The translations under genes and the position numbers were made by a program. This document shows positions 2,143 to 8,676 of a DNA stretch of 64,000 nt, piece by piece (within the stretch, counting starts at the first letter, position 1; each line of letters starts with the position of its first letter). Origin of the DNA: a virus. The DNA lies in IMG/VR virus record IMGVR_UViG_3300035698_026482, positions 96,001 to 160,000 of that record; one strand, 5' to 3'. The notes beneath the pieces are model-generated. The model saw nothing but the letters and a program-made list of their open reading frames with translations. It had not been told where the DNA came from and did no database searches.

Positions 2143-4560
2143 TCAAAAATCGATGCCCGGGCGAAAGCTAATCTTATCACCACTTCTTTTCATAACCGGC
2201 TGCGCTAGTGTGCATTTTGCAACAACATTTAAATTCTCGTCATGGAGATTAATACCTGTAATGTATACAAAGTCTCTATCAAATTCATTTGCATCTAGGC
2301 TTGCGGAAGCTGGCACAAATGCAGGGTTTGACGATGAATTTATCATGCCAGCTGGCGCCTGGACACGTACCTTAAATGTATGAATATTGCGGACACCTTC
2401 AAATTCTAGTTCATGGGCCTCTTTGCCGAAGAATGGCAAGTTCGGACTCTTGACAACTACAAGCCCTTCATCGTATAAGATGTTACCAACAGATGTCCAC
2501 TCTGGATGTGCTGTTAACGCATCTGCGCGGTAAAGCGATCCGAATCCGTTATCCTTAAGCTTAATAGATACTCTTCCGCCCGATCCTGTAACTGCTGGGT
2601 CAGTAATTTCGAACGTGCCAGGATTAAATCTATTACCGTAAAAAATATTGCTAGCGTCAAAGATCGCAATCTCGTTAGATGAATTGTCACGTGTACGTTG
2701 GTAAACCGCTAAAACTTCGCCTGGGTCAACGCCAAGATTATCGGGCGTGGCGCCAACAACATCACCGAATAATGTCCCAGATTCGTTTGTAATCGTTGAA
2801 TACCAAGAGTTGTCTGGGATCAGTTCTGTTAAGCTAATTAGCGTTGGATCATATATTCCCAGGTCATTCGTGTACTTGTAATTCAAGCTTGAGGATGCTG
2901 GAACAAAATCAATTGTGCCTGTTGCAATCAAGCGATAATCAGGTATGAATTGTCCGTCATCACATGGGAGAATTGTCAAATTTCGCTTTCGAACAGATGC
3001 AGTCGAATACAGAAAATCATTCATTGCTTTCGTATCCGAATTCTCCGTTATTTGTGATGCTGTCAATGCCCACGCCCGAGGATAATTCGCATTTGCGAAA
3101 TCTCTTGTAAAATTTTCAAGATTCAAATAATGACCACCGACGCCAAATGATAGCGCAACATTAAATGGATCGTCTGTACGTCCATTAATTGCGAAGAATG
3201 GTGTTTGTAGAATACCACCGATGCTGTCAACTTCGGTTCGAAACGGTGACTCAGGTGTAAAGAATGGGGGCAGGTAAAAGGCTAAATCATCGAGGTCATC
3301 GACGACAGAGGTAAGTGACGCAGAATATATTTCGTGAGTTGAAAGACTTTTTTTCCAGATTTTCAACTCATGAACTTCCGCGTTTAACGGGTGCGAAAAT
3401 TCGAATTGATCTGTTTGCGGTGCATCACCTGCAATTGTTGTCAACTCGGGCAGACCTTCTCTCAATGATGGGTCTGATGTGAAGAATATGCTTGAGCTAA
3501 GCGTGTTTCCTGTGTAGTAATTTCCGACGAATAACACGTCTGGACTATTTGTCAATCCTGTAAGTAGGGATGCCGAGGGAATAACAAAATTGCCCACGTT
3601 TTCGCCGTCAACAATAAATGAGCCTGATCCGTCATTAACGGCATTTGTACCCCATTTAACTGATACATGATGCCAATGGTTTTTTGATAGCACGTTATCA
3701 TCAGACAAAAAGATGCCGCTTGCGCTATCAACAATTTGCGAAGGTTCAGTCGCTGTGCCTTCTAAAACCTGCAAGGCCAATCTAAATTGATCAACGAATC
3801 CATTTTTATCTTTGTGCGTGCCTGATAGGATTGACACTGCATACACATCAGGCAGATGAAAAAGCGTGCCTGGTCGCCATGGATCGCCTGCATTCGGTGT
3901 TGTATATCGTGGGTTTATGCGAAAGTCGAACGTGAATGGTCCCGGTGGCAAATATACATTACCAGATACACTGCCAGAGGCTGCGAGACCTGCCCCGGCG
4001 TTCTGATTCGCATACATTAATACTGTATCGGTAGGCACAGGTTCAGTACCGTCTTCATTCGATCCAGTAAAGAAATTTATCGTGTGATAATTGCTATATG
4101 CCCATTGCATTGACGGGTAAACATCGCGATAGTATGGATACAGTATTTCGCGAATTATTCGCTTTCGACCAAAATCTTTATTAAAGAAAAATGGGGTTTC
4201 GAAACGGACGATCTCAAGCGTTTGTTGTTTTCGGGCAGATCGATCTAACGAGTTTGCCCTTGTTAACAAATTTTGTAATGCGCCAAAATTGTTACCTGCA
4301 GTTACAGCGATTCTTTTCGCATCTGCATATAATCCGTCGATGTCACGACCACCTTCATTTGTGGCAGTATCAAGAAACGGTGATAGCGGGCGCGGATCTT
4401 TTTCTATAGTTGATGCCCTTGCGAATAGGGCAACATTGCCGGTAACAGCGCTATAGGTTCCAGAAACAGCATCATACCCATTCGCGGTATATTCGCGGCT
4501 AGGATTCGTTTGAACTGTAAAATGTTCAAAATGTTCCGGAAGTATTCTAATGATGGTCAT
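2143..4560 (-). CDS. Virion structural protein with LamG/concanavalin-A-like domain and tail-collar-like C-terminus
   Basis: LamG hallmarks (FTFDFRINP, NHWHHVSVKW, HELKIWKKSLS). C-terminal YITGINLHDENLNVVAKCTLAQP resembles tail-collar/baseplate motifs. Confidence 0.6.
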   Translation of the reverse strand: MTIIRILPEHFEHFTVQTNPSREYTANGYDAVSGTYSAVTGNVALFARASTIEKDPRPLSPFLDTATNEGGRDIDGLYADAKRIAVTAGNNFGALQNLLTRANSLDRSARKQQTLEIVRFETPFFFNKDFGRKRIIREILYPYYRDVYPSMQWAYSNYHTINFFTGSNEDGTEPVPTDTVLMYANQNAGAGLAASGSVSGNVYLPPGPFTFDFRINPRYTTPNAGDPWRPGTLFHLPDVYAVSILSGTHKDKNGFVDQFRLALQVLEGTATEPSQIVDSASGIFLSDDNVLSKNHWHHVSVKWGTNAVNDGSGSFIVDGENVGNFVIPSASLLTGLTNSPDVLFVGNYYTGNTLSSSIFFTSDPSLREGLPELTTIAGDAPQTDQFEFSHPLNAEVHELKIWKKSLSTHEIYSASLTSVVDDLDDLAFYLPPFFTPESPFRTEVDSIGGILQTPFFAINGRTDDPFNVALSFGVGGHYLNLENFTRDFANANYPRAWALTASQITENSDTKAMNDFLYSTASVRKRNLTILPCDDGQFIPDYRLIATGTIDFVPASSSLNYKYTNDLGIYDPTLISLTELIPDNSWYSTITNESGTLFGDVVGATPDNLGVDPGEVLAVYQRTRDNSSNEIAIFDASNIFYGNRFNPGTFEITDPAVTGSGGRVSIKLKDNGFGSLYRADALTAHPEWTSVGNILYDEGLVVVKSPNLPFFGKEAHELEFEGVRNIHTFKVRVQAPAGMINSSSNPAFVPASASLDANEFDRDFVYITGINLHDENLNVVAKCTLAQPVMKRSGDKISFRPGIDF

Positions 4561-4569
4561 GTTTCACTG

Positions 4570-4715
4570 TCGCGATCACATTTCACACGAGCCCTCGTGA
4601 GGGTCTCTAATTTTTGCCATTGGAATATCCATCCTCTAGGTTAGAGACCCCCATGATTGCCCCTATGAAATGTGAGACTAGGGTGTGGGGCTTCATAGGA
4701 TATGTGGCTCGTTAG
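4570..4715 (-). ncRNA. Candidate structured RNA (three-way junction plus pseudoknot), family unknown
   Basis: Four perfect complementary pairs in ~140 nt of intergenic DNA: 4706-4712/4587-4593 (7 bp), 4692-4699/4662-4669 (8 bp), 4641-4650/4601-4610 (10 bp), 4666-4675/4576-4585 (10 bp). Confidence 0.5.
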
Positions 4716-4722
4716 ACGTGTA

Positions 4723-4729
4723 TAACTAT
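4723..4729 (-). promoter_or_regulatory. ATAGTTA motif, putative phage promoter
   Basis: Same heptamer class as at 9752, 33429 and 61495; lies directly 5' of the structured region. Confidence 0.4.
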
Positions 4730-4748
4730 TCCCGCGATTGAATTGCGA

Positions 4749-6449
4749 TCATACATCAATCGTATACACCGTGTTAGTATCGCCCCAAACTCGGCAAACA
4801 CGTGCCTGTTGGGCAACGGTTGCTTGTGACATATCTTTTTTTGCCTTGATATGAAAACGATCAAGCCTTGTAACAAAGTCTGTCCACCAGAATCGAGGCT
4901 GCGTTTCATGTATTAGCTTATATCCTGAAGACGGATACCCGTCACCTGAGGAGATCCTCATATCGGCATATGTGATTAATCCTATTCTTTCATTTTCGCG
5001 AGCTATTTTTAGTGCATGCTTCGTTAGCTTAGACAGGCCACCAATAACTGCACAATCACGCTTAATCGCAAACCTAGCAACTTCGTAACGTTTTTCATAT
5101 ATCTTTTTTTGTGGGGAACGTAGCGATATCGCACAAACAAGTTCATCATCATATACTAGTCCATACGCAGATTTAGCACGAATGTCTCCTGCAATATGAT
5201 TCTCGTCGAAGAAAGAGCGACGCTGTTCTCTTGTTAGTTTCACCAATTCACACTTTCTAGCAAAGATTTTTCTATCAGCATCGCCAAGTCGATATCTTAT
5301 CATCGAGGTAATAAGATCTTTTTTGTCGCGCCACTCGTCTTCAAAAATTGTAATGACACGATATCCAAGCTTTTCAGCTAGCTTACGTTTTAGCTGTGTT
5401 CGCCTACTGTCTGCTTCAACAGCTTCACTATGCCAGTATAATCCATGATATTCGATTGCTAATTTGTTATTGGGAAATACAATGTCAAGTTCATATGGGC
5501 GAATTAGCTGCCAATTAGATACTTCAGGTTTATATCCAAGTGCTAAGAACGTATTGGCGATATCTTGTTGTCCAATAGAAACAGACTGCTGTCTATCACA
5601 TAACATGCATCGCGGCGCTAATAACACGCTGCTAAGAACCCTTGCATCACTCTTACCACATTGTGCGCAGGCTACGTTAACAGGCATCATTATTCCTGTA
5701 TATGTCTCAAGCGTAACTGTCGGGGTTATGGCAATTGTTTCGTTCTCGGCAACGATTGCTAATCTTTTTGATAGCTCTTCATATGAAAGTCGATTACTGT
5801 CGCTTATTTTTTTCGCAGTAAGTCTAAGTTGAGCTTGACCTTCTTTCGTTTTATAGAACTTTGATTGCTCTTGTCCACGAGTCTTATGAAAATCTATACC
5901 GTCAGGGGAAGAAGCCCATTTTGCAACGCTAATAGCAACCTGCTGCTTTTTTAATTTGCCAACATCCGAGTCCCAAAATTGCTTAAGAGTAAGACTTCGA
6001 CGCTTATTAATTGCGCGGCCGTATTCAGTTTTGTATAGCTCCTTACACGCCTTTGAACGCTTTGCTATTAGCGTTTGACCTTCAGCTGTCTTATAAAATT
6101 GACGCATAGCGAAAGAGCGCTTTTTGGCGGCCAGCTTTACAGCGTTAGAGCCACTCAGCGCGCTTGATAGATTAAGACGATGATTAGCAGTTAAAGGCTT
6201 CCCTTTACGTCGTTTCGAAATACTTTCCCGCATGTCAGTAGTGTAATGGCCACTGACCAATGACATGAATTTGATGCCATTATGAAATCTTGTATACTGT
6301 CCACATCCACACAAGCACATTGGGCGTATGCCGCTGTGCACATGCTTAACAACATAATCTTCATAGGAAATGTCTAGGTGACATTTACGTAGATGATGCT
6401 TAAGGGCACAACGTGATTTCGTTAATAACCCGCATTCCAAACATTTCAT
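4749..6449 (-). mobile_element. Free-standing homing-endonuclease-like gene (C2H2 Zn finger, CxCGC/NUMOD3-like region, 20-aa repeats, Zn ribbon, Vsr/DUF559-like nuclease, Hef-like C-terminal domain)
   Basis: CLECG...HHLRKCH; CLCGCGQ; CAQC...CMLC; YELDIVFPNNKLAIEYHGLYWHS nuclease motif; C-terminal EVARFA...ITYADMRISSGDGY region typical of phage Hef-like endonucleases. Interrupts a structural operon. Confidence 0.7.
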
Positions 6450-6485
6450 ATAAAGAAAATAGACTTAACACACGTATGTGTTTAA

Positions 6486-6515
6486 CACCACTTACACATT
6501 AATGTGTAAGTGGTG
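6486..6515. repeat. Perfect 30-bp palindrome
   Basis: CACCACTTACACATT|AATGTGTAAGTGGTG is its own reverse complement. A smaller hairpin (6467-6482, AACACA-CGTA-TGTGTT) is adjacent. Confidence 0.95.
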
Positions 6516-6531
6516 GATATCATTAACAAAA

Positions 6532-7752
6532 TTAGTAGTCCATTCGCACGGTATATGTCACGTCGCGTTCGTCATTTTTTTCAATTGGGCGCGAAAACTT
6601 GGCCACTGCCAACAGGTTGTCATTCCCATCATAGAAGCCGAGAGTTGTAATCATAGTAAACGACTTTTGGGTCTCTTCTTGACCCTCGTCAATTACAACA
6701 ATACGATCGTCAGCATCAACATACGTCGGATTCGATGAATAATTGAATTCATCAGCGCCTAGTCGTGCAAAAATCAGTGTTGAATTGATATTCGTGATGT
6801 TTTCATAGACGACTGCCGATAATGTGCCTGATCCGAATCGCGTCGAGGCCACATGATCAATAATATCATCAATTGACGCTGACACAACAAAATCCGGAAT
6901 GAATGAAGCCGAAACAATCATTTCACCTGGACCAGCATCAGTATTTGTTGATGTGGTGCCTGCCTTCATGGCGTCGATTACGCCTGTCATTACTTGATCT
7001 GCCTTTGTGACCTTCGCCATATCAAGCACAACAATACCTGCATCGTTAAACAAAAGACCAACTGTACGTGTGGTGTCAGATGCATCTACAATGTCTGATA
7101 CCTGTCCACCAAATGTAACTTCCTTGTTGGTTGATGCGCCAATATCGGTGTAGATTGAAAATCCAGAGGGATCCGAATCAACTATTTGTAGGTTGGAACC
7201 TGTAGTGTTTACAGTATCCTTATGTGAAAGTGATCCTGTTTGATAGAATCCCAGCACGAATGTCTCGCGCTTCATTTGATCGCGATGAAACAAGCGCTTG
7301 AAGTCTAGAAATAGTGCTGCATCAATAGTATCACTGGCGGTGCTTGACCCAAATGGAGCAACAAATGCGGAGTCGGCGCTGCCTAGCAATTTCTGTGCAT
7401 GCTGCTGATACATGAAGATCTTTTCACGCATCATCATTGTACTGGATGGAAAAAGAAATTTCCCGTTTGCATCTTCTCCAGATTTAAAGCCCTCAACGAT
7501 AGATGATGTATGATACAGGCCCATCGTTATATCAAGCACTGGATTGGCCGTTTGGGCCGTAAACGCTTGATCATGAACGGTGTGAAACAATGAGCTTGTT
7601 ACGCCGGGTCCTATACCTCCCGTGACCCACACTTGATATTGCTCGCGGGTTGCGGATCCAGAAATATCTTCTTGAATCACGTCAACGATCTGGTCTAAAA
7701 ATGACCGTCGTGTTTTAAAATCGTTCGACGAGAGCTCTTTCCAGGTTGACAC
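6532..7752 (-). CDS. Tail/baseplate structural protein with tail-collar-like C-terminus
   Basis: FNYSSNPTY...ITTLGFYDGNDNLLAVAKFSRPIEK...VRMDY C-terminus, paralogous to the end of 2143-4560. Confidence 0.55.
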   Translation of the reverse strand: MSTWKELSSNDFKTRRSFLDQIVDVIQEDISGSATREQYQVWVTGGIGPGVTSSLFHTVHDQAFTAQTANPVLDITMGLYHTSSIVEGFKSGEDANGKFLFPSSTMMMREKIFMYQQHAQKLLGSADSAFVAPFGSSTASDTIDAALFLDFKRLFHRDQMKRETFVLGFYQTGSLSHKDTVNTTGSNLQIVDSDPSGFSIYTDIGASTNKEVTFGGQVSDIVDASDTTRTVGLLFNDAGIVVLDMAKVTKADQVMTGVIDAMKAGTTSTNTDAGPGEMIVSASFIPDFVVSASIDDIIDHVASTRFGSGTLSAVVYENITNINSTLIFARLGADEFNYSSNPTYVDADDRIVVIDEGQEETQKSFTMITTLGFYDGNDNLLAVAKFSRPIEKNDERDVTYTVRMDY

Positions 7753-8676
7753 TTATGCTATCCCCTCTACAACATCAACAATTTGTTGATCAGTCATTGA
7801 ATTAAGTTTTTTATCAGTTAAACGTAACATTTTTTTTCCGTTATGAGCGCACCATTCAATTTGTTGAGCGTCAAGTAATTGTTTGGCGTTTATCGCATAT
7901 GCCTGTGTGCCGGGCTTTGCATTGACTGAGCCGCCTTCGCCGTGCCAATATACACCATCGACCTGAATGTATAACTCGTGATGCTTTATATACATGTCAA
8001 TATCCCATCCGTTCAAGCGTACATGAGTTTCTACATAGCTATCGCCGTACGCCGACCTAAGCACCTGTACAACACGGCGCTCTACCCATGATTCATTAAA
8101 TGTACCATTTTTGCGTTTTGTAGCATGAGACTTTTTTCTAATCGTAGTGCTCTGCATTGGACTATAGACACCATGGCGATGTTGCATAGTCCGATGATAC
8201 TTCTCAGAAACAACAGGATTATCATGAATCGGCGCTGGTGATCCATATTTCTCGATGCGAGTCTCAATCATCTTATCTTTTGTTGCCTTAAGCTTGGTCG
8301 GATGACATCCGTACTTATTATCAAATACCTTCTTAATCTTCTTTTGAACAGTAGTTGATGCAATTGCATGTTCGTGACCATAGCGTTCAAGGTTTGTGGC
8401 TTTCGTTTTTGTGCGAACAGCTGCATTTTGATGCGGATAATCAACGCCATAACGCTCACGACAAGTTATAACGCATTTGACGTGTTTTGCGGCGCCCGTT
8501 TTTTGGGCAACATTTGAACATTTCCGCGAACAAAAATGCAAGTCTTGTGACACAAAATGCACAGAATACTTCTTCATAAACGATTCGCTGCATGAATCGC
8601 ATGTCATTACCGACGTTTTTTTCGGTCTGGACATTCCCCAGCGCTCGCTGGGGCTTATTAGAGTTTTAGTGTACAT
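7753..8676 (-). mobile_element. Free-standing homing-endonuclease-like gene (Zn finger, E[RK]YG repeats, Vsr/DUF559-like nuclease)
   Basis: CDSC...FCSRKC, six ~23-aa E[RK]YG-type repeats, WDIDMY...YIQVDGVYWHG nuclease motif. True start may be internal MSRPKK. Confidence 0.7.

Follow-up and report, generated by a model that had tools for sequence, protein, structure and literature searches.

The spacer that separates a free-standing homing endonuclease gene from a LamG-like tail gene in this phage (188 nt, positions 4561-4748, minus strand) is dominated by a long imperfect hairpin that ranks first in predicted stability within its contig. The element is read here as a lineage-specific structured leader, probably one that owes its presence to insertion. 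The explanation we prefer, tentatively, is that the LamG gene has acquired a self-folding leader at a junction invaded by an endonuclease, that this leader has a cis-acting role in the stability or processing of the message, and that the displaced promoter still serves the gene.

The window, that is, the whole stretch of 64,000 nucleotides analysed here, spans bases 96001-160000 of a phage record in IMG/VR; this record is 182.8 kb long, by estimate about half of the complete genome. Around the spacer all genes lie on the minus strand, in the order 636-aa gene, 237-aa gene, 307-aa gene (DUF7487) and 406-aa gene, followed by an 82-nt spacer, the 566-aa homing endonuclease, the 188-nt spacer and the 805-aa LamG-like gene. 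The latter (2143-4560) is a structural gene with a weak Laminin_G_3 match. Its product is 55% identical to that of the related locus L094 from residue 1, with up to 61% identity in other relatives, and this conservation of the N-terminus from its first residue indicates that the start codon at 4560 is genuine. The endonuclease gene (4749-6449), directly upstream of the 188-nt spacer, matches PHROG 3339 (E 3.9e-64) and PHROG 559 (homing/HNH endonucleases), with weak Pfam matches to MTES_1575 and DUF559 (PD-(D/E)XK-type). Its start is preceded by a U-rich tract, without a Shine-Dalgarno sequence, and the 82-nt spacer on its 5' side (6450-6531) includes a perfect 30-bp palindrome (6486-6515) and a second small hairpin. 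The 307-aa gene (7753-8676) is also endonuclease-like and is inserted between the 237-aa and 406-aa genes; a homologue occupies the same position in L160 (1-498) and is absent from most relatives.

The 188-nt spacer is strongly structured, with an MFE of -63.0 kcal/mol and a z of -4.49; none of 200 shuffled sequences folds as well, which bears out the expectation of an earlier note on this DNA. It is the top-ranking spacer for structure among all intergenic gaps of at least 100 nt in the contig (183 kb, either strand). The dominant predicted structure is a hairpin of 100 nt and 37 bp (4576-4675, minus strand), with a 12-bp lower stem, small internal loops, a 13-bp upper stem and a 30-nt apical region; its arms are 80% complementary. 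Folded alone, the hairpin reaches -51.1 kcal/mol (z -8.4). It is first of 14,620 in stability among 110-nt windows covering both strands of the whole contig, and its GC-corrected z is -5.7 compared to -4.6 for the runner-up in the same set. The hairpin also dominates the ensemble, with pair probabilities of 0.87-1.0. The antisense sequence folds as well (-42.0 kcal/mol, z -6.8). The sense RNA is 9 kcal/mol more stable because it contains four G-U pairs versus one in the antisense, an asymmetry that is not statistically significant (binomial estimate about 0.19).

The 5' part of the putative leader (4676-4722) is mostly unpaired in the MFE structure and holds the 5' arms of alternative helices (4712-4706 and 4699-4692). 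In complementarity to the hairpin, the 41 nt preceding it surpass 98% of shuffles, and an inverted repeat of 16 nt (75%), which takes in the outer stem drawn in the earlier note, joins 4706-4721 and 4578-4593. Together with the sense-strand bias, this upstream complementarity gives a weak hint of a logic operating at the RNA level, neither observation being statistically strong. Between the base of the hairpin and the ATG lies an initiation region of 15 nt (4561-4575) with no clear Shine-Dalgarno sequence. The AUG that follows is unpaired with a probability of 0.5-0.76, and the AUG plus positions -3 to -1 are mostly unpaired (0.5-1.0). A closing stem (4742-4733/4574-4563) can form only in the read-through RNA; it appears in one MFE structure and is not robust to the choice of flanks. 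An ATG-initiated ORF of 29 codons lies inside the structured leader (4607-4696); its best tblastx match has an E of 0.9, and it is unsupported as a gene.

The position of the hairpin with respect to a short promoter-like motif is informative. The only copy of this motif near the LamG gene, AATAGTTA (4723-4730), follows the endonuclease stop by 19 nt and precedes the LamG ATG by 162 nt, and the hairpin occupies the interval between motif and ATG. Elsewhere the distance is far shorter. In 33 of the 158 loci in which the LamG start could be placed, (G)TATAGTTA occurs 4-16 nt upstream of it; this automatic count is a minimum, since inspection adds L259. The loci concerned (L177-L185, L094, L103, L104, L134 and L193-L266) include very divergent relatives as well as most of the closest ones (55-61% aa identity). 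Across 84 loci the heptamer occurs in intergenic DNA, which makes up 11% of the sequence, 18 times in the sense and 5 times in the antisense orientation. In the present genome, several genes have the motif starting 13-40 nt before their ATG. Judging from position, (G)TATAGTTA is probably a -10-like phage promoter, used clade-wide, that would give rise to leaderless mRNAs or mRNAs with very short leaders. As a by-product of this analysis, the motif thus stands as a position-specific and clade-wide signal before the tail gene, and points to leaderless or nearly leaderless late transcripts.

Every relative manages with a leader of at most 16 nt and, therefore, a long leader is dispensable for this gene in general. 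The stretch CGACAG-N6-ATG at the LamG start resembles the sequence directly following the motif in L197 and L177. Because of this resemblance, about 150 nt would appear to have been inserted between the motif and the initiation region, a tentative suggestion based on short matches.

The collection of about 170 loci encoding a LamG homologue places the spacer in a wider context. In most relatives the 406-aa gene adjoins the LamG gene directly, and the junction between them (4561-7752 in the window) is an insertion hot spot, as seen in L094, L100, L111, L115, L154, L160 and L186. Its contents vary and include homing endonuclease genes, small ORFs (92, 110 or 277 aa), divergent genes and non-coding spacers. 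The closest relatives (L177-L188 and L094; 55-61% aa identity) have non-coding junction spacers of 36-163 nt, mostly not strongly structured, and among them only L094 has an endonuclease at the junction. Alignment of their spacers to the 188-nt spacer with MAFFT was suggestive of homology but not significant against shuffles (z at most 2.1), and homology was dropped on this ground. The idea that 4561-6531 is a single insertion, drawn from L003-L005, was likewise abandoned, as the closest relatives include nuclease-free junctions with non-coding spacers of 130-165 nt.

In L094 the nuclease homologue lies at the same junction and is 48% identical over the C-terminal 58%. Downstream of it come two small genes and then, at a distance of 13 nt from the ATG, an intact copy of the motif; the hairpin is missing. 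The L094 junction spacers are unstructured and unrelated to the 188-nt spacer. The two small genes (L094:1687-2660) are paralogous, encode proteins of 158 and 160 aa with Cys-rich zinc-ribbon-like motifs, and share an N-terminal helix of the form K-(L/I)-R-x-(V/I)-I-R-E-E-L. E-box-like palindromic words (CACGTG, CATGTG, GTGACG) are strongly enriched in the spacers upstream of the motif in the closest relatives (L177:3460-3622, L178:4341-4500, L180:337-495, L182:4369-4500, L094:2661-2774 and L186:2870-3000) and are candidate operator sites for a regulator.

Other features of these loci deserve mention in their own right. At the same junction, L100 has an unrelated spacer of 196 nt (3766-3961) that is strongly structured (z -4.2) and holds a canonical terminator, a 13-bp stem with a U-run, after the homologue of the 406-aa gene. 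GIY-YIG/NUMOD3 endonuclease genes occur at other intergenic sites around the tail-gene block (L178/L179:1572-2408 and 6860-7684; L184:3343-3921), so different endonuclease families invade the same module. In addition, the tblastn matches to LamG in L098, L104, L124, L202, L265 and others span 2.9-3.6 kb, exceeding the gene length by 500-1100 nt, which suggests inserted domains, inteins or introns within the tail gene.

Searches for relatives of the RNA itself were uniformly negative. A permissive Rfam search of 3500-7000 returned no match in 4561-4748 even at E up to 10, in keeping with the earlier assessment that the RNA belongs to no known family, and no gathering-level match was found anywhere in the 64-kb window. 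No homologue of the element was detected by blastn in the phage database, nor by blastn, nhmmer and tblastx in about 170 related loci and the rest of the contig, and the sole other match in its own genome is a 21-nt chance match in a coding region, on the opposite strand. Pattern scans of IMG/VR retrieved no match to the lower stem and, for the upper stem, one unrelated perfect hairpin with dissimilar flanks (L093), about one being expected by chance. A covariance model of the leader and hairpin (R1; 170 positions, 37 bp), run over related loci totalling about 1.4 Mb (80 endonuclease-homologue and about 90 tail-gene-homologue loci), gave no credible match, and nothing in the closest relatives L177-L183; the 80 IMG/VR loci L189-L268 served in the motif-spacing count only. 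The best match to R1, at 17 bits and below threshold, fell on the antisense strand of L094, where the nuclease gene has its GC-rich 3' end, and was rejected. Neither the structure nor the sequence is retained before LamG in the relatives searched, as a conserved cis-regulatory leader of the clade would be. By these comparisons the hairpin element is an orphan, with no relatives in anything searched, and does not open a new RNA class.

What the analysis shows is how the segment folds, how rare such a fold is, where it sits with respect to motif and start codon, and that relatives lack it. A lineage-specific self-folding leader can be proposed as follows. Since the segment of about 150 nt has the promoter-like TATAGTTA-type motif on its 5' side and the LamG start codon on its 3' side, it would be transcribed as an unusually long 5' leader; we infer both that the motif is a promoter and that transcription starts there. 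The same sequence would also form the 3' untranslated tail of any read-through transcript of the endonuclease gene. The leader is predicted to collapse into a single 100-nt hairpin that stops 15 nt short of the AUG and leaves it accessible. The hairpin could then act in cis on the mRNA as a stabilising or processing element, for example as a site for a double-strand-specific RNase or as a barrier to decay from the 5' end, with possible consequences for translation. It would in this way set the 5' end and the half-life of the tail-gene message and uncouple that message from the endonuclease transcript. Because the extra sequence folds on itself, it may have been tolerated before an essential late gene.

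The proposal of the earlier note that the region is a leader of the tail gene agrees with this anatomy, in which the promoter-like motif precedes the element and the LamG start follows it, and the closest relatives do keep a non-coding spacer at the junction without a nuclease. What they retain is not the RNA, however, as a homologous structure is found in no relative. Further points count against the self-folding leader: both strands fold, the arms forming an inverted repeat in the DNA, with no homologue there is no covariation to support the hairpin pairs, and the short leaders of the relatives show that the gene can do with far less. Should the tail-gene message indeed be controlled or protected by the hairpin, the locus would show a phage repairing the expression of a gene after an endonuclease invades a promoter-proximal site, and would offer a clean natural case in which a self-folding insert parts a promoter from its gene. 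Being a single orphan sequence at present, it is of value mainly as a well-defined test object.

Much of the evidence also bears on explanations that give the RNA a different role, or none. The palindrome might matter solely at the level of DNA, as a binding site for a regulator or the endonuclease, or as a neutral scar, an inverted duplication that arose when breaks made by the endonuclease at a much-invaded junction were mended by fold-back repair. Several observations are consistent with this possibility, which we consider rather unlikely: both strands fold beyond their shuffles, the other flank of the endonuclease gene has its own perfect palindrome, CACAT/ATGTG words occur on both flanks and words of this kind (CAYGTG, GTGAC, ATGTG) are strongly enriched in the junction spacers of relatives, the junction is a hot spot for insertion, and an orphan sequence is what a young scar would leave. 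However, the incomplete complementarity of the arms, with mismatches that favour the sense RNA, is less easily accommodated, and the 188-nt spacer lacks CACGTG and GTGAC, the very motifs for which relatives show enrichment. Alternatively, the hairpin segment could belong to the mobile cassette of the endonuclease. It might confer self-immunity by splitting the nuclease target (the region from TATAGTTA to the ATG) and so blocking self-cleavage, comparable to MobA and gene 60 of T4 as a preprint summarises that system, or it might be a 3' retroregulation hairpin controlling the decay of the endonuclease mRNA. The segment adjoins the endonuclease gene and lies exactly between the motif and the CGACAG-ATG stretch, which are contiguous in L177 and L197; its ends form the 16-nt inverted repeat, and the same summary provides a precedent for an endonuclease with a protective structured insert (bioRxiv 10.1101/2022.08.31.505936). 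Nevertheless, L094 combines a homologous nuclease with an intact 13-nt distance from motif to ATG and no hairpin, no such companion accompanies the five paralogues or the 69 homologues, and the contig and IMG/VR pattern scans yielded no second copy of the segment, so that membership of the cassette seems improbable. A composite form, in which the endonuclease and a self-folding segment of 150 nt constitute one cassette, the segment destroying the nuclease's own target and the hairpin looping the insert out of the leader so that the essential tail gene is still expressed, appears more improbable still; if true, it would be the leader-region counterpart of the bypass insert of T4 mobA-gene 60.

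The two remaining explanations go back to the earlier note, which had depicted a pseudoknotted three-way junction with switch-like behaviour. A riboswitch or self-cleaving ribozyme of this architecture, controlling the tail gene, is very unlikely. All the named helices do exist: the outer stem (ACGAGCC from 4712 and GGCUCGU from 4593), hairpin S1 (CCUAUGAA from 4699 and UUCAUAGG from 4669), the 10-bp hairpin (GGGUCUCUAA from 4650 and UUAGAGACCC from 4610) and the tail helix (AUGUGA from 4581 and UCACAU from 4675). The flanks are equally as described, with ATAGTTA at 4729-4723 and the structure ending 15 nt upstream of the ATG at 4560. The junction is nevertheless not the favoured fold. In the full spacer it scores -57.0 kcal/mol, compared with -63.0 kcal/mol for the MFE; in a leader transcript starting just past ATAGTTA the two values are -49.3 and -56.9 kcal/mol, and the ensemble probabilities of its outer stem and S1 do not exceed 0.001. 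The 6-bp helix taken for a pseudoknot corresponds to the bottom six pairs of the long hairpin, and as an isolated duplex it contributes -4.8 kcal/mol before any pseudoknot penalty. Junction and pseudoknot together come within about 3 kcal/mol of the MFE with no penalty applied, and would be at best a minor or kinetic alternative. Competition between folds has weak support from the excess complementarity of the upstream 41 nt; helices of 7 and 8 bp are each estimated to be at about chance expectation in 188 nt. The failure to match Rfam and the lack of conservation in relatives also stand against a riboswitch or ribozyme. Hardly credible is the suggestion of an RNA owned by the nuclease, a guide or scaffold similar to the omega-RNA of TnpB, for which the sole argument is the position 3' of the nuclease gene. 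The PHROG and Pfam matches of the 566-aa protein include no TnpB or RuvC signal; it belongs to a homing-endonuclease family, and its relatives carry NUMOD3 and GIY-YIG modules. The contig contains five paralogues besides the gene at 4749-6449 (G000:C1 5625-7247, 7942-9576, 53268-54869, 55664-57442 and 73322-75109), and the six share a C-terminal region of about 350 aa (32-39% identity); six genes of one homing-endonuclease family in 183 kb is a heavy load. Four of the five paralogues end at most 9 nt before the next gene or overlap it, while the fifth has a 3' gap of 434 nt with unremarkable structure. For the 69 homologues elsewhere that have a downstream neighbour, the 3' gap has a median length of 33 nt; gaps with strong folding (z below -4) are found exclusively ahead of convergent genes, where terminators would be expected. 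The absence of a comparable RNA from the paralogues and homologues, and the unstructured, unrelated spacers of L094 at the same junction, therefore disfavour an RNA that belongs to the nuclease.

Several established classes of element can be set aside more simply. The hairpin is not an intrinsic (Rho-independent) terminator, as no U-run follows it on the sense strand and the canonical terminators elsewhere in this genome have U-tracts. A group I intron is rejected because more than 150 relatives have the two flanking genes as distinct, complete genes, no intron model matches and the LamG N-terminus is conserved. A pseudogene remnant of the neighbouring genes was also rejected. The 16-nt terminal inverted repeat recalls a MITE-like element, but there is no clear duplication and no second copy in the contig or, by two pattern scans, in IMG/VR; a direct repeat (4572-4585/4745-4758, 11 of 14 positions identical) is not distinguishable from chance as a target-site duplication. 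A translational-repression hairpin of the T4 type (I-TevI, segB, mobE) is rejected since the hairpin ends 15 nt before the AUG and does not sequester it; moreover, hairpins of that type enclose a late promoter, which lets late transcripts escape, whereas the promoter-like motif here is outside the hairpin, 47 nt upstream.

The element is most fittingly classed with the regulatory hairpins already known from phage intergenic regions, as a further one in an unusual place, with a real and extreme structure and a putative function. Its resemblance to the omega-RNAs of TnpB and IscB systems is confined to the position of a structured RNA 3' of a nuclease gene, whereas the nuclease here is a homing endonuclease without a RuvC fold and the RNA is absent from its five paralogues and 69 homologues. 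The RNase III sites of the T7 early mRNA and the sib retroregulation element of lambda are long intercistronic processing hairpins. They share with the present hairpin an imperfect and near-continuous helix of more than 20 bp, an intercistronic location and the lack of a U-tract. Hairpins of this kind are placed so as to separate the fates of two messages, as the one described here would be, its cleavage being hypothetical.

Closer parallels come from phage endonuclease cassettes. In the mobA-gene 60 region of T4, as that preprint outlines it, an endonuclease is accompanied by a structured insert of 50 nt that blocks self-nicking (bioRxiv 10.1101/2022.08.31.505936, citing Bonocora et al. 2011). 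On this outline, both cases involve a structured non-coding insert beside a free-standing endonuclease that interrupts a conserved stretch of a neighbouring gene region, and in both the folding of the insert would help the gene to tolerate it. In contrast to the T4 insert so described, the present one is located in a leader and not in a coding sequence, so that ribosomal bypass is not needed, L094 has a homologous nuclease without the insert, and targeting of the junction is hypothetical. T4-like endonuclease cassettes with regulatory hairpins or embedded promoters are also known, among them I-TevI, segB and mobE (PMC2988022). These phages place promoters for downstream genes at endonuclease insertions (PMC2988022), and the arrangement described here is similar, with an endonuclease between phage genes and a promoter-like motif for the downstream gene at the 3' edge of the cassette. 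Here, however, the hairpin precedes the downstream host gene and not the endonuclease gene, is far longer (100 nt) and shares neither sequence nor family with those cassettes. The nearest likeness in anatomy is seg43(25) of Aeromonas phage 25, where a very stable hairpin occurs just upstream of an unsequestered RBS (PMC2988022), as it does immediately upstream of the LamG start region, which is likewise not buried. In terms of function, the segG-gene 32 transcripts are processed, and processing stabilises the gene 32 mRNA downstream of segG (PMC2988022); by analogy, transcript processing at the present hairpin may protect the message of an essential downstream gene.
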